In this document: positions 88 to 48,721 of the stretch, piece by piece | Position numbering within the stretch: the first letter of the stretch is position 1 | Layout: each line of letters starts with the position of its first letter | NCBI GenBank assembly: GCA_045542235.1 | Contig: JAZQKQ010000035.1 | Span: forward strand, 1,669 to 65,668 | Direction: 5' to 3' | Source of the DNA: Christensenellaceae bacterium | GTDB lineage: Bacteria; Bacillota; Clostridia; Christensenellales; Borkfalkiaceae | Length of the DNA stretch: 64,000 bases | The notes under the pieces: generated by a model | Seen by the model: the letters and a program-made list of their open reading frames with translations, nothing else | What the model was told of the DNA's origin: nothing | Databases searched by the model: none | Position numbers and translations under genes: made by a program

Positions 88-104
88 TAATCGACTTATA
101 GCCC
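88..104 (-). repeat. intergenic ATAAGTCGATTA-motif copy 1 (minus orientation)
   Basis: Plus strand reads taatcgacttatagccc. The reverse complement is gggctATAAGTCGATTA. Confidence 0.8.
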
Positions 105-128
105 AACTTTTTCCTTTTTTTAAAACTG

Positions 129-157
129 TTGACAACAGCTTAAAATAGTGTTATATT
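129..157 (+). promoter_or_regulatory. sigma-70-type promoter for the lyase gene
   Basis: TTGACA at 129-134, 17-nt spacer, TG-extended TATATT at 152-157. It lies about 30 nt upstream of the ATG at 188. Confidence 0.6.
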
Positions 158-187
158 GTTTATATAATAATTTTGCGAGAGAATAAA

Positions 188-1939
188 ATGAAAAAGTTTT
201 TTTTAATTTTTTTAATATTTTGTTTAGTTTTTGTTGCAGGTTGCGGAAATTCCAACCAAGAAAACAGCAGTTCTAACACCGCTCAAACGGGAAAAAATGA
301 AATTGAAGTTTTGCAAGTCGTTGGCAAAAACAACGCCATTTCTCTTTCCATTAAGGAAGAAGAAAACGTTAAATATAAATTCCTTTACTACGTCGATTCC
401 AACCCACTTTTAGTTGATAAAGAACTAACTAAAAGTGAAAACGGAATTTTAACTTGTAAAATTTTAGGTTTAAAAGCGGGAAAAAACAAGGTGGAAATTA
501 TAGCCGAAAAAAATGGCGAAACCACCAAAAAAATTATCGATGACGTTGAAGTTAATCAAACGGATATTTCAGGCTACGCCCACTTTAACAACCCAAACGG
601 CATTGGCGCTTATAACGACGACGGCACCTTAAAATCGAATGCTAAAATAATTTATCTTTCAAACGAAAACAAAAACACCGTTACCGAAAAAATTGGCAAC
701 ACCTATCCCCTTGGCATAGTTCAAATTTTACAAAACCTAAGTTTCTCAACCACACCCGTTGTCATTAGGGTTTTAGACAATATTTTAACAAACCAATGGA
801 AATATAAATCGGCTCCGCCACGACTTATTGACGACAGCAATTTAACCGCCGATTTTTTTGAAAACACCTTTGAAACCACCTACGGTGAAAACGTTGTTGG
901 GCTAACTAATAACGTAAAAAACGCTCGTGACGGCGTTATTTATAAATACGTGACAACCAAAACCGGCGTTAAGCTTTCATCGACCGGAACGACAAAAACT
1001 GCAACCATTAAATATTCTCGTAACGACTATCCGGAAATTAAAGGTAAAACCGTTTATTCCGATGACAGTAGCTATAATATGGTTCAAGTTAAAAACGCCA
1101 AAAACGTGACTATTGAAGGGGTTTTTGAAGGCGCAGGACTTTTTCAATGGGGAATTAATTTTAGCAAATGCAACGGCATTGAAGTTAGAAATTTAGTTTT
1201 CGACAGCTACACCGAAGACGCCCTTAGTTTTAACGGTGAATCGGGAAGCTCCGCAAGTGCAAGTTCTTTATTAGACTATCCTTACAAAGGCTTTTTCGTT
1301 CACCACAACACCTTTAAACGTGGAAAAAACAATTGGGATATAACAGGCGAGCGGGATAAATACGCAGGCGATGGAACAATCGATTTAAACGAATCGGCAA
1401 ACGTGACCATTGCCTACAATCAAATTATCAACGGCAAAAAAACCATTTTAATTTCTTCAAGTGACGAAAACAAAACCAACAACGTCACAATGCACCACAA
1501 CTATTTTTATAAGTGTGAAAGTCGCCTACCGTTTTCTCGCCACACCAACATTCACACCTACAACAACTACTATAACGAATGTAGCAGTTGCGTTCAAATT
1601 CAAGCCAACGGCTACCTATTTAGCGAAAACAATTTTTACAATAATTGCAAAAAAACATTGGTTGTAAAAACGGCAATAACTAACGATAAGTCCGCCGTTA
1701 AGTCGTTTAACGACGTTTTTTCTAATTGTCAAGCCATTGGCGGAACAATAGTTTTAAACCGAGAAGACTACGTTGAAAATAGCTGTGATACACGGCAAAA
1801 TTTCGACTATTCCACCTTCGACGTTAACCCTGAACTCTTTTATTACGACCAAGCAAACAAATGCTCAAAAGTTAGCATTATGCACAACGCAAACGAACTT
1901 CCTTTAATTATACAGTCAATTTCCGGCGCTAAAAATTAA
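188..1939 (+). CDS. secreted lipoprotein, pectate lyase (PL1)-like right-handed beta-helix
   Basis: Lipobox LVFVAGC follows a hydrophobic N-terminus. DGTIDLNESANVTIAYN and SRLPFSRHTNIHTYNNYY resemble the PL1 catalytic R-x-P-x-x-R...NNYY region. Start trimmed to ATG 188 (MKKFF). Confidence 0.6.
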   Translation: MKKFFLIFLIFCLVFVAGCGNSNQENSSSNTAQTGKNEIEVLQVVGKNNAISLSIKEEENVKYKFLYYVDSNPLLVDKELTKSENGILTCKILGLKAGKNKVEIIAEKNGETTKKIIDDVEVNQTDISGYAHFNNPNGIGAYNDDGTLKSNAKIIYLSNENKNTVTEKIGNTYPLGIVQILQNLSFSTTPVVIRVLDNILTNQWKYKSAPPRLIDDSNLTADFFENTFETTYGENVVGLTNNVKNARDGVIYKYVTTKTGVKLSSTGTTKTATIKYSRNDYPEIKGKTVYSDDSSYNMVQVKNAKNVTIEGVFEGAGLFQWGINFSKCNGIEVRNLVFDSYTEDALSFNGESGSSASASSLLDYPYKGFFVHHNTFKRGKNNWDITGERDKYAGDGTIDLNESANVTIAYNQIINGKKTILISSSDENKTNNVTMHHNYFYKCESRLPFSRHTNIHTYNNYYNECSSCVQIQANGYLFSENNFYNNCKKTLVVKTAITNDKSAVKSFNDVFSNCQAIGGTIVLNREDYVENSCDTRQNFDYSTFDVNPELFYYDQANKCSKVSIMHNANELPLIIQSISGAKN

Positions 1940-1947
1940 AGTTAAAC

Positions 1948-1991
1948 AAAAAAACCGCTTCGTTTTTCCTTTGAAAAACGGGGCGGTTTTT
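1948..1991. terminator. bidirectional rho-independent terminator between convergent genes
   Basis: Arm aaaaccgcttcgttttt pairs with aaaaacggggcggtttt (two G-T wobbles). A-run on the 5' side and T-run on the 3' side. Confidence 0.7.
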
Positions 1992-2013
1992 AAATTTTCT
2001 AAAACAAATTAAT

Positions 2014-2334
2014 TTAAATTAAAAATGGTAAAATCAGTTCAGTTAATAAAACGAATCCGCAAGAAAGAAGGGCAACCACTATTAAGGAGCGCTTGGAAAT
2101 TGAAGCGATTAACGCAACTACCGTTCCAACCAAAGCGGAAATGAAATTTTGGGTTGAATAGAAAATATATGGGAAAGTCATACTTGATAAAACGGCGTAA
2201 GGAAGATAATAAAACAAGCTTTGAAGGTAAACCGATTTTATTTTTTTGCGAAAAAACGCCATTGGAATAACTCTAATTAAATAGGTTATCAAGCACATTA
2301 CTAAAACGTAGAGAACCATTTTCGAGCTACTCAT
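2014..2334 (-). CDS. azlD: AzlD-like branched-chain amino acid transport protein
   Basis: A 106-aa protein that is all transmembrane segments. It overlaps the upstream AzlC-like gene, which is the classic azlCD pairing. Confidence 0.65.
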   Translation of the reverse strand: MSSSKMVLYVLVMCLITYLIRVIPMAFFRKKIKSVYLQSLFYYLPYAVLSSMTFPYIFYSTQNFISALVGTVVALIASISKRSLIVVALLSCGFVLLTELILPFLI

Positions 2335-6782: not shown

Positions 6783-8054
6783 CTATTCTCCCTTTCCGCA
6801 CTTTAACGCACGACTTCCAATATCCTTTCTATAAAAGGCGTTATCAAAATGAACTTTTTCAACGTTTTTATATGAATTTTCAATGGCTTTTTCCAAGTTT
6901 TCACCCGTTGAAACAACGCCTAAAACTCTACCGCCATTGGTTAATAGTTTTCCATTTTCAAGCTTTGCGCCCGCAACGAATAGCTGACCGTTAAAATTAG
7001 AATCAACGGTTATTTCATAACCCTTTTCATAGCTTTCAGGGTAACCCTTCGACGCCATTACAACGCAACAAGCGCTTCCATTATCAAACTCAACTTCAGT
7101 TTCGGCTAAGTTGCCAAAAGTGGTTGCTTGCATAACGGTTAAAAGATCGCTTTTTAAAAGCGGTAAAACAACTTGGGTTTCAGGATCGCCAAAACGACAG
7201 TTATATTCAATAACCTTAACCCCTTTCGGCGTTGCCATAAGCCCGAAATATAAACAGCCTTTAAAGGTTCTTCCTTCCTTTTCCATTGCCCTAACCGTTG
7301 GAAGGAAAATGTTTTCTATACATTCTTTTTCAATTTCCTTGGTGTAATAAGGGTTTGGAGCAATAGTTCCCATACCCCCCGTGTTTAAACCTTGGTCGTT
7401 GTCGAAAGCACGCTTGTGGTCCATTGACGAAACCATTGGCTTAACGGTTTTTCCATCGCAAAAAGCTAAAACGGAAATTTCCGGACCGGTTAAAAACTCT
7501 TCAATAACAACGCTTAAACCGCTTTTTCCAAACTTCCCGCCCTCAATCATTTCCTTAACGGCTTTCTTTGCTTCATCGTTGGTTTGGGCGATAATAACGC
7601 CTTTACCAAGGGCTAAACCGTCGGCTTTTACAACGATTGGCGCACCCACTTTATCGATATATTCACAGGCTTTGTCCACTTGGGTAAACACTTCGTAAGA
7701 AGCGGTTGGAATGTTATACTTTTTCATTAAATCTTTTGAAAAAGCCTTGCTACCTTCAATTATGGCAGCTTCCTTGGTCGGTCCAAAGCAAGGAATGCCC
7801 TTTTCGTTGAGCAAATTAACAAGCCCCAACACCAAAGGATCATCGGGAGCGACAACGGCATAGTCAATTTTGTTGTCAACGGCAAACTCAACTATTTTTT
7901 CAAGGTCGGTTGCCTTAATATCCACAAGGGTTGCATCATTTGCCATTCCGCCGTTGCCAGGCAAAGCAAAAATTTCGGTTACGTTTTTATTTTGTTTAAG
8001 TTTTTTAATGATGGCGTGTTCTCTTCCACCACCGCCAACTACCATAAGTTTCAT
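6783..8054 (-). CDS. purD: phosphoribosylamine-glycine ligase
   Basis: MKLMVVGGGGREHAI N-terminus, ATP-grasp core, and NCRFGDPE motif. Confidence 0.95.
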   Translation of the reverse strand: MKLMVVGGGGREHAIIKKLKQNKNVTEIFALPGNGGMANDATLVDIKATDLEKIVEFAVDNKIDYAVVAPDDPLVLGLVNLLNEKGIPCFGPTKEAAIIEGSKAFSKDLMKKYNIPTASYEVFTQVDKACEYIDKVGAPIVVKADGLALGKGVIIAQTNDEAKKAVKEMIEGGKFGKSGLSVVIEEFLTGPEISVLAFCDGKTVKPMVSSMDHKRAFDNDQGLNTGGMGTIAPNPYYTKEIEKECIENIFLPTVRAMEKEGRTFKGCLYFGLMATPKGVKVIEYNCRFGDPETQVVLPLLKSDLLTVMQATTFGNLAETEVEFDNGSACCVVMASKGYPESYEKGYEITVDSNFNGQLFVAGAKLENGKLLTNGGRVLGVVSTGENLEKAIENSYKNVEKVHFDNAFYRKDIGSRALKCGKGE

Positions 8055-8097
8055 AAACTTTTCCTTTTTTAGGCTTTAATTTTTTTGTTTTTTATGG

Positions 8098-8117
8098 GTT
8101 TAATCGCCTTATTTAGC
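8098..8117 (-). repeat. intergenic motif copy 8 (minus orientation, one core mismatch)
   Basis: Plus strand reads gtttaatcgccttatttagc. The reverse complement is gctaaATAAGgCGATTAAac. Confidence 0.6.
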
Positions 8118-8187
8118 GATTAATTAATTTTTTTTGTTCTTTTTTAAAATAAACGATTGCCTATCTCAATATAACAACCGCTCATTT

Positions 8188-9645: not shown

Positions 9646-9646
9646 T

Positions 9647-12759: not shown

Positions 12760-12788
12760 TTGCAACTTATTTTTGAATGTGCTAAAAT
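12760..12788 (+). promoter_or_regulatory. guaB promoter
   Basis: TTGCAA at 12760-12765, 17-nt spacer, TGcTAAAAT with the -10 at 12783-12788. Confidence 0.6.
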
Positions 12789-12826
12789 TATTAAAATTTA
12801 CATTTAGAAAAATAAGGAGTGAACTT

Positions 12827-14329: not shown

Positions 14330-14340
14330 TTAAAAAACGA

Positions 14341-14371
14341 AAAAGAAGCTTTTAAAAGCTTCTTTTTTTTT
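14341..14371 (+). terminator. rho-independent terminator of guaB
   Basis: AGAAGCTTTT/AAAAGCTTCT stem followed by a T9 run. Confidence 0.8.
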
Positions 14372-14373
14372 GC

Positions 14374-14392
14374 GTTAATCGACTTATTTGCC
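14374..14392 (-). repeat. intergenic motif copy 2 (minus orientation)
   Basis: Reverse complement reads ggcaaATAAGTCGATTAAc. Confidence 0.85.
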
Positions 14393-14409
14393 GATATTTT
14401 AACTTTTTA

Positions 14410-16314
14410 TTACTTTTTGCGTTTTAACAAAATTAAACCAATTGCCCCAAGGGTTAAACCAAAGCAAACCAAACTTCCCTCGCCCGTTGCGCTTGAAGAA
14501 CAACCTCTTTTTTCAGCCGTTTGATTATTAGCCGAACTCTTTTTGCTTCTGCTTCTTCTAGGCGCCGAACTTTGAGCGTTACTGCTTGAAAGCTCGGTGG
14601 AAACAACAGGCTTTTGATTTTCACTTTTGCCCACGCTCACTTGACCAACTTGACTTGTTTGGGTTGAGTCCGAGCTTTTACTTACTTGACCTGTTTGGCT
14701 ATTTTGACTTGATTTAACCGAGCTCGATTTACTAACGCTAGACTTGCTAGTTTGGCTTGTTTGAGCAGTATGTTTTATCACCGAAAATTCACCTAAAAGG
14801 TTAGCGCCAACTTTTTCGTTATAAATATTGCCGTTATTAGCAAGTTTAATTGAACGAAGAAGTGAAGTTTCAGCTTCGTAGCTACTTAAAATTTTAAGAT
14901 AAGCCTTGTAGCTACCTTCGGCAAAATTAGAAGGAATTTGCTCGGTTATTGAAAGGGTTTTAGTAGTTTTACTTAAAAGAGATTTTTCGCTTAAATTTGT
15001 TTTTGTAATCGACTTAACGTTGTCGTTTTTATCGGCAATAACTAAATAGATATTTTGTTTTCTGGTAATATTGCCAAAGCCCACGTTTTCAATATCGAAT
15101 TCAAGTTGCAAATTATCGCCTTGGGCAACGGTTTTCGTTAGGCGACTTCCACGCAAAACCAACCTATACCCCAAGCGATTGCGAATAAATTGAAAATCGG
15201 AAGTTTTATTCTTATAAACGGCGTCGTTGCCGGTATATGTGGTGTTTTCCCAATGGTAAATAACGTTTTTATAATTATAGTGATAGTTTAAATAGGAAGT
15301 GTGAGTTAAAAAACCTTCTTGTTCGATAAACGCACGACTATTATAGCTACCAATTCCGCTGTCGTATTCGTTTTTAATTTTAGCGCTACTATCGGCAAGA
15401 ACTTCCCCACCGAAAGGAACGAATTTAGCGTTAGTTAACCAACCGACTTCCGCATTTCTGTTAAGATAAGTTCCCGTGTCGGTAGAGTTACCTAAATAGC
15501 CGTCGTTATAGCAACCAATGCGGGCTTCGGGGGTGTTTTCTTCAATTTTTATATTATTGATGTTGTTTAAAGTATACGATTTGTTATATTTAGTGTTATA
15601 CCAATGTAAGAAATAGTGTGGTCTACGCACTAAAACGGGCATATCGCTCGGCGTTGCGTTAAGCCAAGCTTCAACGAGCTGATAAAAGCCTTGAACGTTA
15701 TCTCTATTACCAAATGTAGTTGAGTGCTGTTCGCCCCACGCTCCAAACATACCGCTTTGAACGGCGAAAATAACGTCGGCATTGTCGGTTATTACCTTTC
15801 CAAGCTGACTAACGTGTTTTAAAATCCAATCCATACTCGGCTCGCAATCGGCAGAGTTTTCACCGGTATAGGTTACGCCGTCCATATCGTAAGAAAATCT
15901 TACTATGCACGTTGCGTTAACCTTTCTAATTTCGTCAAACAACTTTTCAAGAGATAAAATATCGTTAGCCGTAATATCCTTTGCCGTTCCACCCATATTA
16001 GGCGAATATTTTTTTAGGTCGATGTTAAACCAAATTACGCTAACGCCGTCGTCGATGGTCCAGCCTGGCGACGACCAGGTAAAGCCGTTTACCCATTCGC
16101 TTGCATCGGTAAAAGTAAGAGCGCCGTCGTTATTAAGCTCAACGCCTTCCCTATGAATAAAACCGATATAAGGATTGTTTACGGTTTTAATAGACTCGGT
16201 GTAATCAAGCCCTGCATCGGTTAAAACTGAAGCCTGCGAAACCAAAGGCTTTGCCGTTAAAAGAACGGTTAACGAAAAGGCAAACGCCAAAAGGAAAAAT
16301 AAAACTTTTTTCAT
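14410..16314 (-). CDS. secreted glycoside-hydrolase-like protein (DUF4874/DUF4832-like) with Ser/Gln-rich stalk and C-terminal membrane anchor
   Basis: Sec signal peptide. GMFGAWGEQH resembles the DUF4832 / GH42-like GxWGEWH motif. A low-complexity S/Q stalk of about 100 aa is followed by a hydrophobic helix and KRKK. Confidence 0.4.
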   Translation of the reverse strand: MKKVLFFLLAFAFSLTVLLTAKPLVSQASVLTDAGLDYTESIKTVNNPYIGFIHREGVELNNDGALTFTDASEWVNGFTWSSPGWTIDDGVSVIWFNIDLKKYSPNMGGTAKDITANDILSLEKLFDEIRKVNATCIVRFSYDMDGVTYTGENSADCEPSMDWILKHVSQLGKVITDNADVIFAVQSGMFGAWGEQHSTTFGNRDNVQGFYQLVEAWLNATPSDMPVLVRRPHYFLHWYNTKYNKSYTLNNINNIKIEENTPEARIGCYNDGYLGNSTDTGTYLNRNAEVGWLTNAKFVPFGGEVLADSSAKIKNEYDSGIGSYNSRAFIEQEGFLTHTSYLNYHYNYKNVIYHWENTTYTGNDAVYKNKTSDFQFIRNRLGYRLVLRGSRLTKTVAQGDNLQLEFDIENVGFGNITRKQNIYLVIADKNDNVKSITKTNLSEKSLLSKTTKTLSITEQIPSNFAEGSYKAYLKILSSYEAETSLLRSIKLANNGNIYNEKVGANLLGEFSVIKHTAQTSQTSKSSVSKSSSVKSSQNSQTGQVSKSSDSTQTSQVGQVSVGKSENQKPVVSTELSSSNAQSSAPRRSRSKKSSANNQTAEKRGCSSSATGEGSLVCFGLTLGAIGLILLKRKK

Positions 16315-16373: not shown

Positions 16374-16460
16374 TAGCTTAAAGAAAATTCAACCTAATTT
16401 TAAATATACTTATATTTATTTTTATGTTATAACCTATTTAAATATTTTTTCAAAAAAGGC

Positions 16461-16479
16461 GTTAATCGACCTATTGCCC
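16461..16479 (-). repeat. intergenic motif copy 3 (minus orientation, one core mismatch)
   Basis: Reverse complement reads gggcaATAgGTCGATTAAc. Confidence 0.7.
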
Positions 16480-16487
16480 ACTTTTTA

Positions 16488-16530
16488 ACAAAAAATATCC
16501 CCATCGCCCTAAAAATAGGCGTGGGGATAA
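16488..16530 (-). terminator. rho-independent terminator of the lipid operon
   Basis: On the minus strand: ATCCCCACGCC..GGCGATGGGGAT hairpin followed by ATTTTTTG. Confidence 0.7.
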
Positions 16531-33521: not shown

Positions 33522-33583
33522 AAAAAACCTTTATAATTTTTAGTTTAGCTTAATAAATTAACTAAATATTTTTATTAAAAAGT

Positions 33584-33603
33584 GGTCTATAAGTCGATTA
33601 AAC
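33584..33603 (+). repeat. intergenic motif copy 4 (plus orientation)
   Basis: ggtctATAAGTCGATTAAac. Here the motif sits in the loop of a GTGGT/ACCAC hairpin flanked by A and T runs. Confidence 0.85.
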
Positions 33604-33620
33604 CCATAAACCACCATTTT

Positions 33621-34544
33621 TTATAACCTTGTAGTAGTAATTTTATCGTAAATTTCTTTATATTTATCTTTATAGAATAAATTACTACCAGGCGTGGTAA
33701 CCGAAGCCGTTCCCGCAGCAACGCCACACCTTAACATCTCTTCAATTCCAGCGCCTTTTTCAATGGCAACGGCAACGCCGGCAACCATGCTATCCCCTGC
33801 GCCAACGGTTGAATTAACCGCAACGTTTTCACTCTTTGAATAAAAAGCGTTAGTTCCATCGGTTAAAATTGCTCCGTCCTTTCCAAGGGAAAGTAGCACG
33901 GTTTTTGCGCCACGGTCAATAAGTTTATAGCATCCTTTAACCATATCTTTAAAATTAGTATAGCTTTCCTTATTAACAACTTCAAGCTCGTTAAGGTTTG
34001 GCTTTGCCATAAACACACCTTGGCTAAGAGCGCAAAGCATTTTTTCACTTTCGCAGTCAACTATAACTTTTGAGGTTTTGTTTGAAGCCCCGACCATTTT
34101 ACCATAATAATCGTCGGCAACGCCACTTGGTAAAGAGCCGGAAATTATGGTAATTTGAGCATCTTTACTCATTTCGCCAATAACTCTAATTAGTTCGGCT
34201 TGCTTTTCTTTTGAAACGTTAGCGCCACGATCGTTAATTTCAGTCATCATCGATTTGCTATCAATAATTTTATAATTAATGCGAACGTGCCCTCTCGACC
34301 AAACGAAAGAAGCGGAAACCCCTTCGTTTGCAAGATATTGCATACACCGCCTACCGCCCGTTTCAAACATAAAACCGGTAGTTTTAACTTGGTGGTTAAG
34401 CCTTGCCACACCTACTGCGGCGTTAAGGGCTTTACCTGCCCATCGTTCAATTTTATTTTCAATTCTATTAAGCCTGCCAACGTTAAATTTTTCAAGCTCT
34501 AAAGTGCAATCGATGCACGGATTTGGACATACCGTTAAAATCAT
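33621..34544 (-). CDS. 1-phosphofructokinase-family (PfkB) hexose-phosphate kinase
   Basis: ILTVCPNPCIDCT N-terminus and GAGDSMVAG motif. Start trimmed to ATG 34544. Confidence 0.8.
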   Translation of the reverse strand: MILTVCPNPCIDCTLELEKFNVGRLNRIENKIERWAGKALNAAVGVARLNHQVKTTGFMFETGGRRCMQYLANEGVSASFVWSRGHVRINYKIIDSKSMMTEINDRGANVSKEKQAELIRVIGEMSKDAQITIISGSLPSGVADDYYGKMVGASNKTSKVIVDCESEKMLCALSQGVFMAKPNLNELEVVNKESYTNFKDMVKGCYKLIDRGAKTVLLSLGKDGAILTDGTNAFYSKSENVAVNSTVGAGDSMVAGVAVAIEKGAGIEEMLRCGVAAGTASVTTPGSNLFYKDKYKEIYDKITTTRL

Positions 34545-34585
34545 TTTAATTCTCCGTCGACAAAGCAATGATAATTAAACTTGGG

Positions 34586-37782: not shown

Positions 37783-37826
37783 AATTTCACCAAATGCTTA
37801 ATTTTTTTATTAAAACTTTAAAAACT

Positions 37827-37845
37827 CGCCTATAAGTCGATTAAT
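37827..37845 (+). repeat. intergenic motif copy 5 (plus orientation)
   Basis: cgcctATAAGTCGATTAAt. It overlaps the stop codon of the VWA gene (37841-37843). Confidence 0.85.
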
Positions 37846-39196
37846 TGGCATTTTTATCAACCATTCGAGCAACCACGCCGTATGGCGGATCGATTTCAAG
37901 GTTATTTATTACCCACAAAACGGGTATGTCGATAATTTTATTTTTATCGGGGAAAGGAGCATAGCCATCGGTTAAAATTACAACCGATTTAGGCAAATTA
38001 TCCGCCATTTCCTTTTCAATATATTTAAATATAACCCCAAAGTCAGTTCCCCCACCGCCGTAGGCGTTAATTCGCTTAAACTCCTCTTCATCCATAAAAG
38101 GAACGGGCTTTACGACTTCGGCATCGAAAAAACCTAAATAGCCTTTAAGCTTTCCGTTAAATTGGTCGATTGCCCCCTTAATTTCACTATAACACCTTGC
38201 AACGTCGTCGTCACTCATTGAACCGGAAGTATCAATCATAAATAAAATATTTTCAACGCTTTCATCCTTTTCGTTGAAATCGGGCAGGTAAAACCCGTTA
38301 TCAAACCGCCTATCCGGTGGCGAAAAAGAATAATCCATAACTTCTTCTTGAACGAAATTTTGCAAAATCGTTCGCCAATCGATAATTGGATTTTTTAATT
38401 GATCTAAAACTCTCTTAGCGCAAAGTGGCACCAACCCACGGCTGGTTGACGATTCTCTAACGGAAATAGACTCAACCGCTTGGCGCAAACGCATTTCCCA
38501 AAAACGTTCAAGTTCATCGTTATCGGGGGTTTTTCCCCATTGGCTATGGCTGTCTATTCTCGCACCACTAACACCGCAATCAGGATAGCCGTAACCATTG
38601 GATTTCATTCCGCCGTTTCCGCCGTTTGAATTTTTACCTTGTCCGTTTCGTCCATTATTATTTTGACCGTTTTTACCTGATGAGCCATTAGACGAAGAAG
38701 AATTTTTACTGCTAACCCCTTTTTTGGCGTTTTTTTCAAACTCCTTCTTTATTAGCTCGTAAACTTCTTCGGCGGTGTATAAATAGCCTTCGCTTCCGTC
38801 GGGAACGGTGTGCATTGCCTCGCCGTAGTTAGTTAAAGTAATTTTTCGTTTATCCATATTTTGCGAACGCAAAATGTTTGAATTCACAACAACGTCGCAA
38901 GCAACGTTAAACAAAAACTCATCACGCCCATTCGTTCTAAAACAATGCTTTAACGCAATGTGCAAAACTTCGTGCATAAGCACAAAGTCAAGCTCGGAGT
39001 CGGTTAATTCCCCTAAAAACCTTGTTCCAAAAACAATTTTCTCCCCGTCGGTATAAGCCGTTTCGGCGTTAGAGTCAATGGCAAACTTTGCGTGCATTAA
39101 TAAAATTCCGTAAAAGCCGTTTTCCGTTAAAAGCCTAAGCCGAGAAAGAAGCAAACGTTTAGAATATTCTTTCATTAAATCATTAGACAATTCCAT
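37841..39196 (-). CDS. zincin metallopeptidase-like N-domain + low-complexity linker + VWA domain (DUF2201-type architecture)
   Basis: HExxH as LMHEVLHIALKH. A G/N/S-rich linker. MIDAS motif as MIDTSGSMS, and VILTDG. Confidence 0.8.
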   Translation of the reverse strand: MELSNDLMKEYSKRLLLSRLRLLTENGFYGILLMHAKFAIDSNAETAYTDGEKIVFGTRFLGELTDSELDFVLMHEVLHIALKHCFRTNGRDEFLFNVACDVVVNSNILRSQNMDKRKITLTNYGEAMHTVPDGSEGYLYTAEEVYELIKKEFEKNAKKGVSSKNSSSSNGSSGKNGQNNNGRNGQGKNSNGGNGGMKSNGYGYPDCGVSGARIDSHSQWGKTPDNDELERFWEMRLRQAVESISVRESSTSRGLVPLCAKRVLDQLKNPIIDWRTILQNFVQEEVMDYSFSPPDRRFDNGFYLPDFNEKDESVENILFMIDTSGSMSDDDVARCYSEIKGAIDQFNGKLKGYLGFFDAEVVKPVPFMDEEEFKRINAYGGGGTDFGVIFKYIEKEMADNLPKSVVILTDGYAPFPDKNKIIDIPVLWVINNLEIDPPYGVVARMVDKNAN

Positions 39197-40298: not shown

Positions 40299-43200
40299 TG
40301 TCTACCCCCAATTTTTTATCAATTCTTTTTAATTTTCTTTTTAGTTTTTCAATATCGTCGCCATAGAATTTAAGTTTTGGAATTTCCTTTTCCAAATTAG
40401 CCTTTTCGTTTTCTAAAGCAACTAAATATTGATTAATTTTTTCATAATGCTCTTGAAGATTAGCAATATAATTATCAATTCTTATGAGGTGCCCTTTTTC
40501 AGCGTTTGAAAGTTCAACGTTATATCTACCTTCCCTTTGCAAAACCAAGTAAGGGTGGTTAATATCCATATTAGAAGGCATAATAAGGGAAAAACCTTGA
40601 TAAGAAGCGATGGTTTTTTCTTCAGTTTGCAAGTGGTTTGCCATAAGTTCGTTTTGAATTAATCCGGCAAAATCTCTCCGCCATTCCTTATCGGTAATAG
40701 GCTCGAAAGAAGCAATCTCTTGAACGTCGCTTAAACATTTTAAGCAAACTTCACGCTGTTTTTCGATAAGAGCAGGCAGTGCGTTAAGCCTTTCTTCCAT
40801 CGTCTGCTTTAAAATAACCTGTCTTGCTTGAAGGGAAACGCATTTTGAAAGCTGATTGCTAACTTCTACCCTTTCTTTAATGAGCGGATTACCAATTGCC
40901 AACGCCTTAATTTCAGCATAGTCTAGCACGATATCGTCAACGTTAGAAGCTTCTCTTTGAGAAACCGTTCCGCTTAATAAATCGCAAATAAACCGCTGTT
41001 TCGTTTCTAAAAGTTGCCACGAATAGGCATCGAAACTACCTTTGGTTATATACCTGTAAATAAACACCTGACTGTTTTGGTTGCCCTGTCTTATAATTCT
41101 ACCGTTTCGCTGAACCATATCGGCAGGTTTCCAAGGCACGTCGATGTGGTGAACCGCAACAAGCTTATCTTGAACGTTAACGCCTAAACCAAGCTTAAAA
41201 GTCGAGCCGATTAACACTCTAATTTCACCACGGCGCATTTTATTGAACAAATCGGTTCGCTGTCTTTCGGTGTGAGCGTTGTGAATATAGGCAACGTGCT
41301 CTCTTAAAACGCCCTTCAAAAGCAATAATCTGGTAAGTTCGTCGTAAATATTAAACCCAGCTTTCGGCGTTGAACTATCGCAAAAAACAATTTGCGTTAA
41401 ATTTTTAGCCGAAGTTTGCTGATAGATATTAAACACGTTTTCAGCGCAATCACGAACCTTTGAAAGATGGTCTTCACGGGCGTTTTCATCAACCAATCTA
41501 ATGTCTAACGCCGCCTTTCTACCATCGGTGGTAATTTTAAGCATATTATCTTCATTTCTACCAACCTTGCGATTTCTAACCTTGTCGGCACGAGTGGAAA
41601 TTTCCTTTAAATAGCTATCAAGTTGCAAAGATTTTTCAATAAGTTGGTCGTTATAGCCTTTAAAAATTGGCAAACCAACCGCCTTTGCTTGGTCGTGGAA
41701 ATCGGCAAAACCGGCAAGCATATTCGTTAGTTCTGGAATATTATGGAATTTTGAAAATCTCGTTGCCAAACGGTAGCTTGAAGTGTCAACGTCAATTTCA
41801 AACACCGTTTGCTTTTCGGCAAACATTCCAATCCAAGCGTCGAAACTCGATAAATCTAAAAGGCTAAGTTCACCGCTTTGAAGGTAGGTTTGCAAGGTGA
41901 AAACGTCGGTAATAGAGTTGGAAATTGGCGTGCCGGTTGCAAAGCAAATGCCACCGCCACCGTTGGTTTTTTGCACGAATCTAACCTTTTCAAGCATATC
42001 CTTACACTTGATTGAGCCTTGGGAATTAATGCCCAAAACGTGCCCGATTTTAGTGTCAAGCGGTAGGTTTTTAAAGTTGTGAGCTTCATCAACGAAAAGC
42101 CTAGTAATACCCAATTCGTTAAAATAAACGTTAACTTCTTTATCGTCAACCTTCTTTTTTCTTAAAAGCTCTTCTTCTTCAATTTCCACCCTTTTCTTTT
42201 CAAGGCGCTTTAACCTTGTTTTTAAAGAATCTTTTGCTCGCTTTGGATTTTTTAACGCAATTAAAATGGAATCGATTTCTTCAATAATTTGGTTTTTATA
42301 GTAATTTAAACCAAACTGAATTGATGAAAAACAGCTATAACAAATTACGATTGCATCGTAGTTGCCGTCACGCATTTTAATAAGAGTTTCCTTTTTCTTT
42401 GCAGGAGTGAAAACCTTTGGCTCAACGTAGAGAACGTTTGAGTTTGGATACATATCGGCGTAAATTTCCTTCCATTGTCCAATAATGTTGTTTGGAACTA
42501 CGAACATATTCTTTTTGGAAGCGCCAATTCGCTTTAATTCTTCACCTGCGGCAATCATAACGTAGGTTTTACCCGAACCAACGTCGTGAGCGAGCAAGGT
42601 GTTTGGAGTGAAAAGTATTCTGGCAATGGCATTTTTTTGGTAATCGTAAAGCTTTACCAACTTATTCATAGTTGGCAAGGTTAAAAAACCACCGTTAAAC
42701 CGACGAGTTCTTAAACTACCAAACTTGTTTGTAAAAATGGTTCTAAGCTCTTCCGCACGGGCTTTATCACGCCAAACCCACTTTTGGAAATCACGCAAAA
42801 TTAATGCTTGCTTTTCAACGCAAAGCATTGTTTCTTCCTTGTTTAAAACGGAAACCTTTTTATCCTTTTTATAGTCCATAACCTGGTCGTATATGGTTAA
42901 AGGTCGTTGGTTTAAAGTTCTCTCGATAATTTCAAGAGCGTTGAGCCTTGAAGTGCCGAAAGTGGAAGTAGACTTAACGTCGCCCACGCCCATATAACGG
43001 CGCTTAAAAGGGATTTCCCAAGTGCCGGTTATTTCATCAAACAAGGTTGCATAGTCAGGGTGATTAAAATATTTTGCACCCCCTAAAAGGTGGATTATAA
43101 ACTTGTCCACCACGTGAGAAGGAAGCCAAGGCGAGCCTAAGGTTACGTAAATATCCTTTTGATTAACTTCTTCCGGCATAACCTTATTAATCGCTTCAAT

Positions 43201-43740
43201 ATTTTCCTTAAAATAACCCCTATATTGAATGTTTGCGGTAATTGCAATTTCCCGCTTGCGCAAAAGGTTGCCCGAAAGATATTCATCGGCAGTTTCCCAA
43301 CCCTTATAAAACACACCGCCCCAGCTTTCAGGGTTTTGAAAAATTGCACCCTTTAAGCCGAAAATTACGTCCTTTAAACTTAGTGCGGTAATTTGAGAAA
43401 TATATTCAATATCCACCCTACCCAACTGGTTTAAGCTCATAATAAGCCCGTCGGCAAGGTTTTCGCAATAAACCCCTTTTACCTGTTCGCTGTTTTTAAA
43501 GGCGTTTTCCCAATCGAGTGAAACTTCCATGGTGGTAGATTTTTCCACTTCTTCATCGGTAGGCATAACGATTTGAGGCTTTGTAAAAATAGCTTCCTTT
43601 TCCACCTTTTTTACAATTTTTGCCTCAGGCTTTTTACCGGATTTTTGAGCGTTATACTCCTTTTCAAACTGCTCAAAGTCAATTTTTCCGTTAACGGACT
43701 CTAACAAATTATTAAGTTGTTCAAAATCAATTTTTAACAT
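40285..43740 (-). CDS. SNF2-family DEAH helicase, 1151 aa, with uncharacterised N- and C-terminal extensions
   Basis: Motif I AHDVGSGKT, motif II DEAHNFKN, motif III ATGTPISNS, motif VI QRNGRIIRQGN, and a coiled-coil C-terminus. Confidence 0.85.
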   Translation of the reverse strand: MLKIDFEQLNNLLESVNGKIDFEQFEKEYNAQKSGKKPEAKIVKKVEKEAIFTKPQIVMPTDEEVEKSTTMEVSLDWENAFKNSEQVKGVYCENLADGLIMSLNQLGRVDIEYISQITALSLKDVIFGLKGAIFQNPESWGGVFYKGWETADEYLSGNLLRKREIAITANIQYRGYFKENIEAINKVMPEEVNQKDIYVTLGSPWLPSHVVDKFIIHLLGGAKYFNHPDYATLFDEITGTWEIPFKRRYMGVGDVKSTSTFGTSRLNALEIIERTLNQRPLTIYDQVMDYKKDKKVSVLNKEETMLCVEKQALILRDFQKWVWRDKARAEELRTIFTNKFGSLRTRRFNGGFLTLPTMNKLVKLYDYQKNAIARILFTPNTLLAHDVGSGKTYVMIAAGEELKRIGASKKNMFVVPNNIIGQWKEIYADMYPNSNVLYVEPKVFTPAKKKETLIKMRDGNYDAIVICYSCFSSIQFGLNYYKNQIIEEIDSILIALKNPKRAKDSLKTRLKRLEKKRVEIEEEELLRKKKVDDKEVNVYFNELGITRLFVDEAHNFKNLPLDTKIGHVLGINSQGSIKCKDMLEKVRFVQKTNGGGGICFATGTPISNSITDVFTLQTYLQSGELSLLDLSSFDAWIGMFAEKQTVFEIDVDTSSYRLATRFSKFHNIPELTNMLAGFADFHDQAKAVGLPIFKGYNDQLIEKSLQLDSYLKEISTRADKVRNRKVGRNEDNMLKITTDGRKAALDIRLVDENAREDHLSKVRDCAENVFNIYQQTSAKNLTQIVFCDSSTPKAGFNIYDELTRLLLLKGVLREHVAYIHNAHTERQRTDLFNKMRRGEIRVLIGSTFKLGLGVNVQDKLVAVHHIDVPWKPADMVQRNGRIIRQGNQNSQVFIYRYITKGSFDAYSWQLLETKQRFICDLLSGTVSQREASNVDDIVLDYAEIKALAIGNPLIKERVEVSNQLSKCVSLQARQVILKQTMEERLNALPALIEKQREVCLKCLSDVQEIASFEPITDKEWRRDFAGLIQNELMANHLQTEEKTIASYQGFSLIMPSNMDINHPYLVLQREGRYNVELSNAEKGHLIRIDNYIANLQEHYEKINQYLVALENEKANLEKEIPKLKFYGDDIEKLKRKLKRIDKKLGVDNDCD

Positions 43741-44062: not shown

Positions 44063-45259
44063 ATGAGTTACATAGAGTTAGATAAAAATATTGAAAACTT
44101 AATAAAAACCGAAAGGAAAAACGGAACTTACAAAAGGGTTGAATGTTGCGATAACAGCGCTATTCGCAGGTTTTCTAACCCACACGACCAACCTTCGATA
44201 ATTAGAAGCAACTTTATTAAAGACGTTGACAAAATTTTAAACCTGCCCTTTTACAATCGCTACGGCGATAAAACCCAAGTTTTTTCCTTTTATAGAAACG
44301 ACGATATTTCCAGGCGGTTTAGCCACGTTCAATTGGTTTCAAGAATTGCCCGAACAATCGGCAAAGCTTTAAACCTTAACCTTGAACTTATTGAAGCCAT
44401 TTCTTTAGGTCACGACCTTGGCCACCCACCCTTTGGACACAGTGGAGAAGTTATTTTAGATAAACTTTTTTATTCTCAAACCAAACGGCATTTTTCCCAC
44501 GCAATTCAATCGGTGCGAATTTTAACCGATATATTCCCACAAAATTTAACTCTACAAACCCTTTCGGGAATAGCTTCACACAACGGAGAAATAGAACAAA
44601 AAAATTACCAACCTAAACCCCTTGAAAGCTTTGACCAATTTGACAAGCTCATTGAAGAATGTTACGTAAACGACCAAACGGCTAAAAAGTTGGTGCCATC
44701 GACTTTGGAAGGTTGTCTTGTGAAAATTTGCGACATAATTGCCTATATCGGCAAGGACCGGCAGGATGCTCAAAAAATTAACCTTGTCGCCCAGGAAAAC
44801 TTTACCGACCAAATAATCGGGCTTTTCAACGCCGAAATTATTAACAATTTAATGGTCAACCTAATTGAAAATAGCTACGGCAAGCCTTACGTTTGTTTAA
44901 GCGATGAATTTTTCACGGCTCTTAAAAGCGCAAAGGAACAAAATTATAAATTAATTTACGCCCACCCGCAAAACGTTGAAATTTTTAATAGCGTTGTTAA
45001 TCCAATGTTTGAAATGGTTTATTTCAAGCTTTTAAGTCACCTTAAAAATAAAAATCAATCATCGCCAATTTTCACCCACCACGTTAATCTTATTAACAAC
45101 AGTTTTTACTCTCGAAGTCAGCCTTACGGCGAAGGCGAGCCTAACCAAATCGTAGTTGATTTTATTGCTTCTATGACCGACGATTACTTTTTAGACATTT
45201 TTCATCACCTTTTCCCTGACAGCAATTTAAAGGTTGAATTTAAGGGTTATTTTGATTAA
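44063..45259 (+). CDS. dGTP triphosphohydrolase-like HD-domain protein
   Basis: LGHDLGHPPFGHSGE and the HD signature. Length is 398 aa. Confidence 0.8.
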   Translation: MSYIELDKNIENLIKTERKNGTYKRVECCDNSAIRRFSNPHDQPSIIRSNFIKDVDKILNLPFYNRYGDKTQVFSFYRNDDISRRFSHVQLVSRIARTIGKALNLNLELIEAISLGHDLGHPPFGHSGEVILDKLFYSQTKRHFSHAIQSVRILTDIFPQNLTLQTLSGIASHNGEIEQKNYQPKPLESFDQFDKLIEECYVNDQTAKKLVPSTLEGCLVKICDIIAYIGKDRQDAQKINLVAQENFTDQIIGLFNAEIINNLMVNLIENSYGKPYVCLSDEFFTALKSAKEQNYKLIYAHPQNVEIFNSVVNPMFEMVYFKLLSHLKNKNQSSPIFTHHVNLINNSFYSRSQPYGEGEPNQIVVDFIASMTDDYFLDIFHHLFPDSNLKVEFKGYFD

Positions 45260-45264
45260 ATAAT

Positions 45265-45283
45265 GGCAAATAAGTCGATTAAC
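45265..45283 (+). repeat. intergenic motif copy 6 (plus orientation)
   Basis: ggcaaATAAGTCGATTAAc, 6 nt after the stop codon. Confidence 0.85.
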
Positions 45284-45295
45284 GCAAGTTTTTAT

Positions 45296-45331
45296 AAAAA
45301 AATCCTGAAAGCAAAACTTTCAGGATTTTTA
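45296..45331 (+). terminator. rho-independent terminator
   Basis: AATCCTGAAAG/CTTTCAGGATT stem followed by a T-run. Confidence 0.8.
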
Positions 45332-45370
45332 AATTTAAAATTAATTTGTATAAAAATTTAAGCGTTTAAA

Positions 45371-46907: not shown

Positions 46908-46917
46908 GGAGAAAACT

Positions 46918-47337
46918 ATGAAGGATTTAAACTGCGGATATTGCGTTCACGGCGAGCCTCTTGCAAAATTCGGCATTTTTATTTGCGACCTTGAAGTTAG
47001 CCAACTAATCCTATTTAAAGAACAATCGAAAAAAGGCAGATGTATCGTTGCCTATAAAGACCACGTTAGCGAAATCGTAAACATTTCCGACGATGAAAGA
47101 AATAAATTTTTTGCCGACGTTAATCGTGTTGCAAAAGCCATTCACAAGGTTTTCAAACCGGACAAACTTAACTACGGCGCTTACGGCGACACGGGCTGTC
47201 ATTTGCACGTTCACCTTTGCCCAAAATATAAAGACGGTGACGAATGGGGTGGAACGTTTACTATGAACCCTAACAAAACCTATTTAACCGAAGCTGAATA
47301 TGAAAAAATGATTGACGACATTAAAAACGCCCTTTAA
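46918..47337 (+). CDS. HIT-family hydrolase
   Basis: Histidine triad as CHLHVHLCP. Start at ATG 46918 follows AAGGAG. Confidence 0.7.
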   Translation: MKDLNCGYCVHGEPLAKFGIFICDLEVSQLILFKEQSKKGRCIVAYKDHVSEIVNISDDERNKFFADVNRVAKAIHKVFKPDKLNYGAYGDTGCHLHVHLCPKYKDGDEWGGTFTMNPNKTYLTEAEYEKMIDDIKNAL

Positions 47338-47397
47338 TGGGAATACTATTAAAATCAGCTTATAATCAGTAAAAAATAACCTTATAAGGAATTAACT

Positions 47398-48618
47398 ATG
47401 GCACATAACGTTATTGAAGAAGCAAAGCGTTGCTTAAATTGCAAAAACCCACAATGCGTTAAGGGTTGCCCAATTTCCACGCCTATTCCTGAATTTATTT
47501 CAACCTTTTTAAACGGCGATATCAATAAAGCAGGACAACTTTTGTTTGATAACAACCCGCTTTCCGTGGTTTGTTCGTTGGTTTGCAACCATTCAAGCCA
47601 ATGCCAAGGTCACTGCATTAAAGGCATTAAAGGTCAACCCGTTGAAATTAGCACCATTGAAAACTATATTTCCGAACGCTATCTCGATAGCTTGCAATTA
47701 GATCAAGCCCCACCTAACGGCATTAAAGTTGCGGTTGTGGGTGGCGGTCCTGCCGGCATCACCATTTCAATTAAAATGGCTCAGCTTGGTTACGACGTAA
47801 CCTTGTTTGAAAGCAAGCCTAAAATCGGCGGTGTTTTAAGGTTCGGTATTCCCGAATTCCGCCTTCCAAAGTCTATTATCGATAGGTTTGAAAAATTAAT
47901 GATTAAAATGGGCATTAAAATCAAACCTAACATTACCATTGGCAAATCTTTCGGAGTAGAAGAACTTTTCCGTGACGGCTTTAAAGCCATTTCTATTGGA
48001 ACGGGCGTAACCTATCCAAACAACCTTAACATAAAGGGCGAAACTCTCGCCCACGTTCACTACGGCGTTCACTACCTTAAAAGCCCTGAAAGCTACCGCT
48101 TAGGCAACAATCTCGTTATCATTGGCGGTGGAAACGTAGCAATGGACGTTGCAAGAACTGCTATGCGCCAAGGGGTTAAAAACGTTACCATAACCGTCCG
48201 CTCGGAAACCTATTCGGCAACTAAGGAAGAAGCCGACTACGCTCAAATTGAAGGCGCTGATTTTATATATAATATAACGCCTATTGAAATTACCGATAAC
48301 AGCGTAATTTTCGCAAAAACAATTACCAATGCCGACGGCAGTTTACAAACTACCAACGAAACCTACGAAATGAATTGCGACAGCGTTATAATTTGCGTTT
48401 CTCAAAAACCTTCTAACCTAATTCTTCGCCAAACCCAAGGCTTAGAAGTAAACGAAAGAGGGCTTGCAAAAATCAGCGAAGACGGCGTCACTTCCCGCCC
48501 TGGCATCTTTGCCTCGGGTGACGTTGTTCGTGGCGCTAAAACCGTTGTTGAAGCCGTTGAAACTTCTAAAAAGGTTGCCGCTGCAATGGATAAATATTTA
48601 AAAAGTTTAAAAAACTAA
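47398..48618 (+). CDS. GltD/NfnB-like NAD(P)H-dependent FAD oxidoreductase (glutamate synthase small-chain family)
   Basis: N-terminal Fe-S Cys clusters (CLNCKNPQCVKGCP). Two Rossmann motifs, VAVVGGGPAG and VIIGGGNVAMD. Confidence 0.8.
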   Translation: MAHNVIEEAKRCLNCKNPQCVKGCPISTPIPEFISTFLNGDINKAGQLLFDNNPLSVVCSLVCNHSSQCQGHCIKGIKGQPVEISTIENYISERYLDSLQLDQAPPNGIKVAVVGGGPAGITISIKMAQLGYDVTLFESKPKIGGVLRFGIPEFRLPKSIIDRFEKLMIKMGIKIKPNITIGKSFGVEELFRDGFKAISIGTGVTYPNNLNIKGETLAHVHYGVHYLKSPESYRLGNNLVIIGGGNVAMDVARTAMRQGVKNVTITVRSETYSATKEEADYAQIEGADFIYNITPIEITDNSVIFAKTITNADGSLQTTNETYEMNCDSVIICVSQKPSNLILRQTQGLEVNERGLAKISEDGVTSRPGIFASGDVVRGAKTVVEAVETSKKVAAAMDKYLKSLKN

Positions 48619-48635
48619 AACCTACGTTTAAATTA

Positions 48636-48677
48636 AAAAGCAAGACTATAAGAAAACAACTTATAATCTTGCTTTTA
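48636..48677 (+). terminator. rho-independent terminator
   Basis: AAGCAAGACTATAAG..TTATAATCTTGCTT stem followed by T-rich sequence. Confidence 0.75.
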
Positions 48678-48702
48678 TTTTTGTTTTTATTAATTAAATA
48701 AC

Positions 48703-48721
48703 GGGCTATAAGTCGATTAAC
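48703..48721 (+). repeat. intergenic motif copy 7 (plus orientation)
   Basis: gggctATAAGTCGATTAAc. Confidence 0.85.

Follow-up and report, generated by a model that had tools for sequence, protein, structure and literature searches.

Hyper-abundant DNA words that belong to a single clade are known from few bacterial groups. They include the DNA uptake sequences and uptake signal sequences (DUS/USS), the repetitive extragenic palindromic (REP) elements, HIP1, and the Chi and FtsK-orienting polar sequence (KOPS) words, and each has informed the biology of DNA uptake, of mobile DNA or of chromosome handling. Described here is a further word of this type, the 13-nt core ATAAGTCGATTAA, found in a stretch of 64,000 nucleotides (hereafter the window) from the genome of a Christensenellaceae bacterium (assembly GCA_045542235.1, contig JAZQKQ010000035.1, positions 1,669 to 65,668 of the forward strand). 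A first-pass annotation, made from the letters of the window, had pointed out eight intergenic copies of this motif. Here such a word, with dialects and with copies in coding sequence, occurs in an uncultured genus of gut Clostridia with small genomes, in which competence pili and REP transposases were not found.

The described systems that come closest differ in kind. According to Frye et al. 2013 (PMC3630211), DUS/USS are present in thousands of copies and occupy up to ~1% of a chromosome; DUS accumulate in the core genome, lie near terminators behind genes, sometimes as inverted pairs, and form dialects that follow clades and keep a shared conserved part. REPs are typically extragenic, lie behind genes in both orientations (PMC2817692, PMC3733652) and have a GTAG or CGTC tag at one end (PMC3733652). 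At operon ends, REP/BIME (bacterial interspersed mosaic element) sequences are thought to bind architectural proteins and topoisomerases (PMC2817692, PMC3733652). The HIP1 word (GCGATCGC) of cyanobacteria is hyper-abundant in coding and non-coding DNA, is under selection and has lineage variants, and its function was long unknown (PMC5861425, PMC4390886). Finally, the footprint of IHF on its sites is described as exceeding 25 bp; one half has the consensus WATCARnnnnTTR, and in some sites the other half has a tract of 4-6 A (10.1101/382655).

It is the last of these systems that the motif resembles in its layout. The motif may be the core of a double-stranded site of ~45-55 bp for an architectural protein that recognises its sequence and bends the DNA, a reading that is given a probability of roughly 40%. 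About half of this probability would go to a protein of the DNABII (HU/IHF) family as the reader, by analogy with IHF. The site would consist, in this order, of an A5 tract, seven bases (RT-n-GG-n-C), T-ATAAG, four clade-specific bases, TTA-W, six bases and a T5 tract, and it would be completed by further A/T tracts about one helical turn apart. Most likely it would mark or insulate transcription-unit ends or control the topology of the DNA around them, as REP/BIME elements are said to do in E. coli together with IHF and gyrase. A protein site kept by selection accounts for all of the observations. Among the options listed, without a preference, in the first-pass annotation (a DNA-uptake sequence, a polar chromosome site, a binding site for a global factor, a small mobile element), the binding site is the best fit, given the phased extended flanks, the purifying conservation and the clade-specific centres.

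The assembly that holds the window (G000; species of the genus are denoted by G numbers, and contigs by C numbers, where they need to be told apart) comprises 1.425 Mb in 45 contigs, has 36% G+C and is 95% complete. It contains 56 exact copies of the core and 161 copies with no more than one mismatch, compared to averages of 0.16 and 5.7 for 500 permuted words. A genome-wide count on both strands, which had been proposed as a check, therefore lies far above the permuted-word background. No 13-mers of the genome are more frequent than the motif words, which outnumber even words composed of A and T only, and the 161 copies of 13 bp make up about 0.15% of it, or ~1 copy per 9 kb.

The embedding described for the window copies (A run, GGC, core, G/C, T run) holds genome-wide as a position-specific profile. 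The full pattern spans ~45 bp and reads AAAAA-RT-n-GG-n-C-T, ATAAGTCGATTAW, six bases and TTTTT, with more A/T tracts ~10 bp apart. Upstream of the core, the profile features W at -22 to -18, A at -13 to -9, R at -8, T at -7, GG at -5/-4, C at -2 and T at -1; position 13 of the core is A or T, and downstream there are T at +20 to +24 and W near +31. The pattern stands out more sharply in a second species, G004 (AAAAAGT-SSGSCT-ATAAGCCCGTTAT-CGCCAC-TTTTT), where W tracts lie near -30, -19, +32 and +43. Conservation stops beyond ~35 bases on each side, which means that the core is not the end of a longer repeat. The form with T at position 13 (T13) is near-palindromic, ATAA-G-TCGA-TTAT, so a small change can flip the apparent orientation of a copy.

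The placement of the motif relative to genes is highly uneven. Genes were called greedily as the longest open reading frames (ORFs) of at least 70 aa, a crude procedure that assigns 91% of the genome to ORFs. On these calls, 108 of the 161 copies are intergenic, and the enrichment between genes that was to be checked amounts to a 23-fold higher density (0.95 per kb compared to 0.040 per kb in ORFs). Density is highest in convergent gaps (2.14 per kb), lower in tandem gaps (0.93 per kb) and lowest in divergent gaps (0.22 per kb); in numbers, 37 copies are found in 148 convergent gaps and 6 in 147 divergent gaps. The distance to the nearest gene end has a median of 14.5 nt and is no more than 30 nt in 85 of 114 copies. 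The site thus favours transcription-unit ends, where it follows closely on a gene in either orientation.

This position argues against a promoter and is compatible with a link to transcription-unit ends. If the motif were the promoter or operator of a regulon, bound by a sigma factor or a repressor, copies would be expected in front of genes, and some do stand 20-40 nt upstream of a ribosome-binding site and start codon. The motif also has what we take to be a loose resemblance to sigma-28-type -35/-10 elements. However, the convergent gaps in which copies abound offer no gene to drive, the next start codon may be anywhere from about 8 to 264 nt away, whereas the distance to the previous stop is tight, and copies occur in both orientations, which makes such a role very improbable. 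Several known sites were also considered and set aside: sigma-28 and sigma-54 promoters, Spo0A, cre and MraZ boxes, and Xer/dif-like cores do not fit in spacing or symmetry, and the placement behind genes speaks against operators.

Copies are unevenly spread along the genome as well. They are over-dispersed among contigs even after correction for coding DNA and gap types (chi-square 83.9, simulated p=0.0023), and their spacing is clumped, with a coefficient of variation of 1.13. Contigs without copies total 293 kb, where 28.7 copies would be expected, although these contigs were selected post hoc. The five largest of them are long one-directional arrays. The 33 large ORFs sampled there include housekeeping genes, among them SMC, ClpX, trigger factor, LigA, PcrA/UvrD, MutS2, PheT, Lon, IF-2 and PNPase, and none of the 33 matches a phage or transposon family. 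Between species, copies recur behind orthologous genes to some extent: 8 of 20 against 28 of 182 in the comparison of G000 with G004 (p=0.012), and 5 of 18 against 17 of 94 with G018, which is not significant. This positional conservation is suggestive, but operon ends are conserved in their own right, which confounds the comparison.

The first-pass annotation had emphasised a switch in orientation, and the window does contain four minus-strand copies left of 17 kb and four plus-strand copies right of 33 kb. Such a layout, like the 31 forward and 15 reverse exact copies of G018, might be produced by a polar chromosome signal of the KOPS, Chi or Ter type, the orientation of which would follow replication. 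However, GC skew is negative throughout the window, so no replication switch lies between the minus and the plus group. Across G000, orientation is independent of the GC skew of the surrounding 20 kb (50/35 versus 42/34, Fisher p=0.75) and of gene-strand bias (p=0.42), and 73 of 135 pairs of neighbours are oriented alike. A 393-kb contig of G018, the GC skew of which is positive in 18 of 20 windows, has 23 plus and 14 minus copies, and those of the CCCG dialect introduced below split 5:6 there. In addition, Chi and KOPS are not known to be concentrated between genes, unlike the motif. The orientation tests therefore reject a KOPS-, Chi- or Ter-like role, which is left with next to no probability, and the 4-minus/4-plus switch of the window is due to chance.

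A position just behind stop codons, an A run upstream and a T run downstream are also features of transcript ends. The motif could act at the RNA level, as the top of an intrinsic (bidirectional) terminator or as a hairpin that stabilises 3' ends, and its scarcity in divergent gaps and in long operon-like arrays would agree with this. In a subset of copies, including window copies 8100 and 33589, a true hairpin does precede a T run, and true hairpins or overlapping inverted pairs account for roughly 15-20 copies in total. Behind guaB, the motif or a near-motif is found in five of eight species, in differing contexts, and the three other relatives have a plain terminator, or nothing, in its place. 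In G004, many copies share one 37-mer with an imperfect inverted repeat, AAAAAGTGG / CCACTTTTT, the consensus of which is predicted to fold at -11 kcal/mol.

For the motif as a whole, the profile is not explained by pairing within a hairpin. No pair of flank positions in a fixed register covaries in G000 (best z=3.1 among all pairs), and its copies fold no more stably than chimeras in which the left and the right flank come from different copies (-8.5 versus -7.6 kcal/mol, p=0.17); in G004, covariation is likewise lacking and the difference in stability insignificant (p=0.14). At least four contiguous flanking pairs are formed in only 4 of 105 exact copies, namely 3 of 49 in the T13 form and 1 of 56 in the form with A at position 13. 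Moreover, TCGA weakens the inner stem of the CCCG form with no compensating change in the left flank. This flank is identical in both dialects, which marks it as a sequence element in its own right that does not serve to pair with the centre. To view the flanks as no more than a pair of hairpin arms would be too simple.

Further evidence against an RNA element comes from orientation and placement. An RNA signal should be sense-specific, whereas orientation relative to the nearest upstream gene is 76:53 in G000, 35:29 in G004 and 29:21 in G018, or 140:103 (58:42) in total. Inside genes it is 33:31, 9:11 and 22:17 in the same species (64:59 in total). About a third of copies are within genes with their full flanks, where a terminator would be harmful. 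A scan for hairpin-plus-T sites finds one at 61 of 64 motif-bearing gene ends in convergent gaps and at 24 of 61 in tandem gaps, leaving 37 without one. Finally, an Rfam scan of the window at gathering score finds one tRNA and no family on the motif. An RNA-level element is consequently considered quite improbable.

Two observations concern hairpins and guaB in their own right. Copies that overlap head-to-head or tail-to-tail create perfect palindromes of 22-24 bp (Table 1), with predicted hairpins of -15 to -25 kcal/mol. Just behind guaB of G011 (contig C15), the last codons and the stop are repeated ~3 times in tandem as an 18-nt unit that G003 does not have, a difference of 36 nt.

The copies inside genes are informative about how the motif arises. 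Forty-seven of the 161 copies are inside ORFs, and they use all four stop-free frames, encoding LIDL, NRLI, ISRL or YKSI. Among them are 38 copies deep in ORFs of at least 200 aa, in both orientations, which retain the A tract, the GG and the T tract. One copy is located in a methyltransferase gene (Pfam) of G000 and has no counterpart in 19 of 19 orthologues, and yet the alignments are ungapped; in several of these orthologues, a stretch close by that encodes SGYK(S/T)(V/I)I holds a motif or near-motif that is oriented the other way. Another is found in a gene for a TPR protein, and the alignment of its orthologues likewise shows no gap linked to the motif. At this single orthologous site, G000 and G009 have ATAAGTCGATTAA, G018 has ATAAGCCGATTAA and seven further species have ATAAGCCCGTTAA, so that TCGA, CCGA or CCCG is present according to species, at the cost of an R/G change in the protein (NRLI versus NGLI). 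The 13-mer is invariant in the 7 species while adjacent codons vary. In the ATPase gene of an ABC transporter, a further copy occupies the conserved stretch that directly follows Walker A. Judged from these alignments, the coding copies that were checked arose in place, without insertion. The site can be written into coding sequence through codon choice.

These copies bear directly on a REP- or MITE-like selfish repeat (the latter a miniature inverted-repeat transposable element), in which a palindromic element of ~37 bp would be copied by some enzyme and its copies homogenised by gene conversion. The motif shares with REP/BIME its abundance (>100 copies), a mostly extragenic position close behind genes in both orientations, the imperfect palindrome of the G004 37-mer, overlapping head-to-head and tail-to-tail pairs, and species-specific variants, with sub-family abundance differing between species. 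It departs from them in that a third of its copies are within genes, those checked without insertion relative to orthologues, one of them in the conserved stretch after Walker A, and in that a coding site matches the dialect of each species. In addition, what is conserved seems to be an asymmetric 13-bp core rather than a stem: the core is more conserved than the arms, which lack covariation. The GTAG or CGTC end tag is not in the G000 or the G004 consensus. Neither the Y1 transposase (RAYT; PF01797) nor TnpB was found in the 95%-complete genome; the Y1 model gives 0 matches in G000 and is positive in 6 of 14 reference genomes used as a control.

Comparisons of close relatives also show no clean filled and empty sites, although the sample is small. 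G011 and G003 are 82-96% identical over 68 kb, and 91-96% in most blocks. Ten G011 copies are in this region: eight have identical 13-mers in G003, a ninth has a single base change, and the tenth falls in an unalignable gap in which G003 has a copy in the opposite orientation. Clean insertions are not among the ten. At 5% divergence, the absence of any change in 104 core bases has a probability of ~0.005 (hand calculation). In three public sequencing runs at ~1% divergence, contigs bridge window copies 8100, 14375 and 16462, and nearby changes are limited to 1-nt homopolymer differences. A footprint or target of a small mobile element, as the first-pass annotation had also entertained, is thus not supported, given coding copies without indels, the lack of presence/absence differences at ~1% or at 4-9% divergence, and the transposases not found; a REP- or MITE-like origin is possible but unlikely. 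The site is maintained at the DNA level, by selection or by molecular drive.

The motif is a property of one genus. ATAAGTCGATTAW is found in all 22 other species, with 8-123 copies each (23 of 23 genomes including G000). Of 18 genomes sampled from other genera, 16 have no copies and the remaining two have 2 each, so conservation in relatives, which the first-pass annotation had wished to see examined, extends across the genus and stops short of its sister genera. In 200 kb from each of two sister genera of the same family, no hyper-abundant word was seen, and none of 80 metagenome loci around GuaB relatives from other taxa (66-78% identical), which serve as a negative control, holds the motif. 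Among the matches listed for the 14-mer CTATAAGTCGATTA, most are from uncultured gut Clostridia and metagenome-assembled genomes of Christensenellaceae, from humans, goats and deer. Viral contigs were considered as carriers and dismissed: among the matches listed there is one match per contig, and the flank signature (score of at least 7) is present in 4 of 232 of them compared to 81 of 130 matches from genome contigs. The viral matches are therefore due to chance, and nothing follows from them about phages. With its dialects, the motif provides a cheap marker with which to assign metagenomic contigs to the genus and to its clades.

The four bases at the centre (TCGA, CCGA or CCCG) vary from clade to clade, and the surrounding ATAAG....TTAW is constant. 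The CCCG word ATAAGCCCGTTAW ranges from 0 to 258 copies per genome and is most numerous where canonical copies are fewest. Eight species have 143-258 copies of it and only 9-21 canonical ones, the maximum being 258 exact copies in the 1.5 Mb of G004; G000, G003, G011 and G014 have 0-2, and other species are intermediate for both forms. In G018, CCGA is the preferred centre: one contig has 21 CCGA, 14 TCGA, 11 CCCG and 7 CCGT copies. Lineage variants of a hyper-abundant word in coding and non-coding DNA recall HIP1 as described in the sources cited above. Yet HIP1 is a perfect 8-bp palindrome tied to methyltransferases and far denser, whereas the motif is 13 bp long and asymmetric, has long flanks and is concentrated behind genes.

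Dialects that track clades while the outer parts are conserved are, above all, a trait of DUS/USS. An uptake signal of this type, by which cells prefer DNA bearing their own motif and clades diverge into dialects, was among the options of the first-pass annotation, and the motif resembles one in several respects: it is the most abundant word of the genome, without strand bias, it is genus-wide and lacking in sister genera, and it is kept identical over time. Copies arise in place within genes, in poorly conserved stretches, and lie behind genes, sometimes as inverted pairs. The flanking A/T tracts are in helical phase, as are those that flank the USS of Haemophilus. If the motif were an uptake or self-recognition tag, it would point to a new route of DNA exchange in the gut.

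The other half of the comparison is less favourable. Carriers here are uncultured Gram-positive-type gut Clostridia, a group in which we know of no uptake sequence, and a literature search found nothing on over-represented DNA uptake sequences in Clostridia or on intergenic repeat motifs in Christensenellales. The density is about ten times below that of known systems. DUS accumulate in the core genome, whereas spacing here is clumped and ~290 kb of contigs with housekeeping and DNA-repair genes are copy-free.

Of the competence genes that had been proposed for a check, only some were found; since assemblies of the genus are incomplete, negatives mean that a gene was not found and not that it is absent. 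DprA is present, as is a single ComEC-like ORF of 492 aa (G000:C6:24396-25874; L444:4396-5874, minus strand), in which Pfam shows the Competence channel domain alone and no beta-lactamase-fold nuclease domain. Type II/IV secretion-family ATPases (PF00437) have no real match in 23 of 23 genomes of the genus, the best being a partial P-loop stretch at 25.8 bits. No prepilin peptidase (PF01478) or prepilin N-methyl motif (PF07963) was found in G000. The ComEA model remains below its cut-off, with its match inside a 733-aa frame. An uptake signal is accordingly regarded as rather improbable.

To return to the DNA-bending protein, its proposed site can be set against IHF sites position by position. 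Measured against the consensus as given in 10.1101/382655, T-ATAAG-nnnn-TTA agrees at 8 of 9 specified positions, and the four bases that vary between dialects fall exactly on its nnnn. The A5 tract is 7 nt upstream of the motif (about 7-8 bp to one side), comparable to the A tract in the other half of some IHF sites. Both have an asymmetric core of ~13 bp with two conserved blocks around four variable bases and a pattern that exceeds 25 bp, and a DNABII gene is present. Among the REP/BIME elements, the RIP/RIB class of BIMEs binds IHF.

A candidate reader is the product of the one DNABII gene of G000. This protein scores below all NCBIfam cut-offs for HU and IHF, and its best solved relatives are HU proteins. 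All 23 genomes of the genus have a copy, and the 18 that were scored with the G000 query are 73-86% identical to it, whereas outgroup genomes of the order have only proteins that are 34-47% identical. In a DNABII tree, the genus forms a clade with support of 100/99, a stem branch of 1.06 changes per site and short internal branches, for which long-branch effects are possible. A second DNABII paralogue (Table 1) is present in 10 of 23 genomes: all eight that have at least 143 CCCG copies, plus G018 and G005. The layout of IHF sites suggests that the reader would be a genus-specific protein of the HU/IHF (DNABII) family.

A ParB/Noc-type reader was also considered and set aside, as G000 has one ParB gene only and no second. 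This single ParB (Spo0J) gene, at C33:55301-55576, is itself closely bracketed by motif copies (G000:C33:54309, 56101 and 57430).

Several points weigh against a DNABII-type site. The C of the IHF consensus is replaced by A in the motif, the downstream T tract has no counterpart in that consensus, and the central four bases, which are free in IHF, are specific within a genome (TCGA in 106 of 293 ATAAGnnnnTTAW matches in G000). IHF is a pair, IhfA/IhfB, whereas G000 has a single divergent DNABII gene. The link to DNABII is a lead drawn from co-occurrence at the level of the genus and from resemblance in layout, and the whole genus may sit on a long branch; the association between paralogue and dialect follows the tree, so it represents at most one or two independent events. 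The 47 copies inside ORFs need explaining if binding affects transcription. Given the crude longest-ORF calls, some of the copies counted as coding near ORF starts are not coding. Many G004 copies, with their shared 37-mer and its folding consensus, look like a copied palindromic element. Lastly, a protein site by itself fixes no cellular role.

A more specific version of the DNA-bending protein site may be sketched. The genus might have evolved an IHF-like system of its own, in which a fast-diverged protein of the HU/IHF family, present in all 23 genomes, co-evolved with 100-260 high-affinity sites at transcription-unit ends. Where the second paralogue is kept, the two proteins would pair as a heterodimer and the asymmetric CCCG dialect would be in use, while lineages that lost the paralogue would form a homodimer and would have drifted to the near-palindromic ATAA-G-TCGA-TTAT. 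Bound sites would then be protein-dependent, orientation-independent boundary or topological elements in reduced genomes. This scheme is speculative and, taken as a whole, unlikely. If a dedicated HU/IHF-family protein does read the motif, the genus would offer a natural example of co-evolution between a nucleoid protein and the sites that it binds in the genome.

Within the window, a search with the core recovers the eight intergenic copies that had been reported, five exact and three with one mismatch (Table 1); the coordinates first given for them were padded forms of the same cores. With up to two mismatches there are 16 matches, compared to 3.6 +/- 1.9 in 100 shuffles, none of which reaches 16. 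All eight copies lie outside the window ORFs, apart from the overlap of one with a stop codon. Two finer claims hold in part. The gene at 14410-16314 is flanked by two copies, as had been said, but these are the third and fourth and not the second and third. Terminator-like or hairpin sites accompany the copies at 14375, 8100, 33589 and 45270, as the claimed closeness to terminators would have it, and the scans find none at 87, 16462, 37832 and 48708. The statement that no described motif matches agrees with the literature searched, in which the exact word was met only in one paper on an unrelated E. coli subject.

Table 1. Positions of motif copies and related features. Numbers without a genome and contig label are window positions; a strand is that of the motif.
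Feature	Span	Core or match	Strand	Setting
Copy 1	66..131	87-99 (ATAAGTCGATTAT, one mismatch, T13 variant)	-	Upstream of ORF 173-1939; A-tract and T-tract flanks (aaaaagttgggct / tggcgatttt)
Copy 2	8079..8144	8100-8112 (ATAAGGCGATTAA, one mismatch)	-	Between ORFs 6783-8054 and 8461-9717 (purD / purH, both minus); pairs as inverted repeat with its own left flank; terminator-like site 8100-8123
Copy 3	14354..14419	14375-14387 (exact)	-	Convergent gap between guaB (12773-14329, +) and ORF 14410-16314 (-); 7 nt from bidirectional terminator-like hairpin 14339-14368
Copy 4	16441..16506	16462-16474 (ATAGGTCGATTAA, one mismatch)	-	59 nt past stop of ORF 16534-18303 (-)
Copy 5	33557..33622	33589-33601 (exact)	+	19 nt past stop of ORF 33621-34568 (-), orientation opposite to gene; within terminator-like hairpin 33581-33615 (minus strand)
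Copy 6	37800..37865	37832-37844 (exact)	+	Overlaps the stop codon of ORF 37841-39196 (-), which its TTA gives in reverse complement
Copy 7	45238..45303	45270-45282 (exact)	+	Convergent gap, 10 nt past stop of dGTPase-like ORF 44063-45259 (+); followed by A/T-rich hairpin (judged by eye)
Copy 8	48676..48741	48708-48720 (exact)	+	89 nt past stop of ORF 47398-48618 (+)
Doubtful ninth match		19890-19902 (ATAAATCGATTAA, one mismatch)	+	Inside ORF 19153-19989, without the flank pattern; probably chance
Overlapping-pair palindromes	G000:C12:1180-1201, C43:10440-10461, C45:17867-17890, C33:19399-19422, C36:16461-16482			
Second DNABII paralogue	G005:C7:255189, G004:C1:336498, G018:C5:64395 and others			Own clade (support 99/98), distinct from outgroup HU

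Other features of the window were noted as well. A CRISPR array at 53871-55425 contains ~22 copies of a 36-nt repeat with a period of 66 nt, and words from this repeat are among the commonest 13-mers of G000 (24-25 copies). Four minus-strand ORFs at 55511-61512 adjoin the array; the largest encodes a type II Cas9 of 1371 aa (TIGR01865, 821 bits), and the three smaller ones beside it are putative cas genes. At 53289-53634 there are two tandem units of 172 bp, 96% alike, each with a terminator-like hairpin and a stretch like a reverse-complement tRNA T-arm. Similar pieces are found in tandem at C42:58487-58927 and also on C10, C16, C31, C33 and C43, and the units may be a second repeat family or remnants of tRNA-derived attachment sites. 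Finally, a helicase-like protein of 1151 aa is encoded at 40285-43740 (minus strand), with weak matches to SNF2/PLD anti-phage proteins (DISARM DrmD, phospholipase-D-like), and a dGTP triphosphohydrolase-like gene lies beside it at 44063-45259 (plus strand). Together with the CRISPR locus, these two genes may form a defence neighbourhood.

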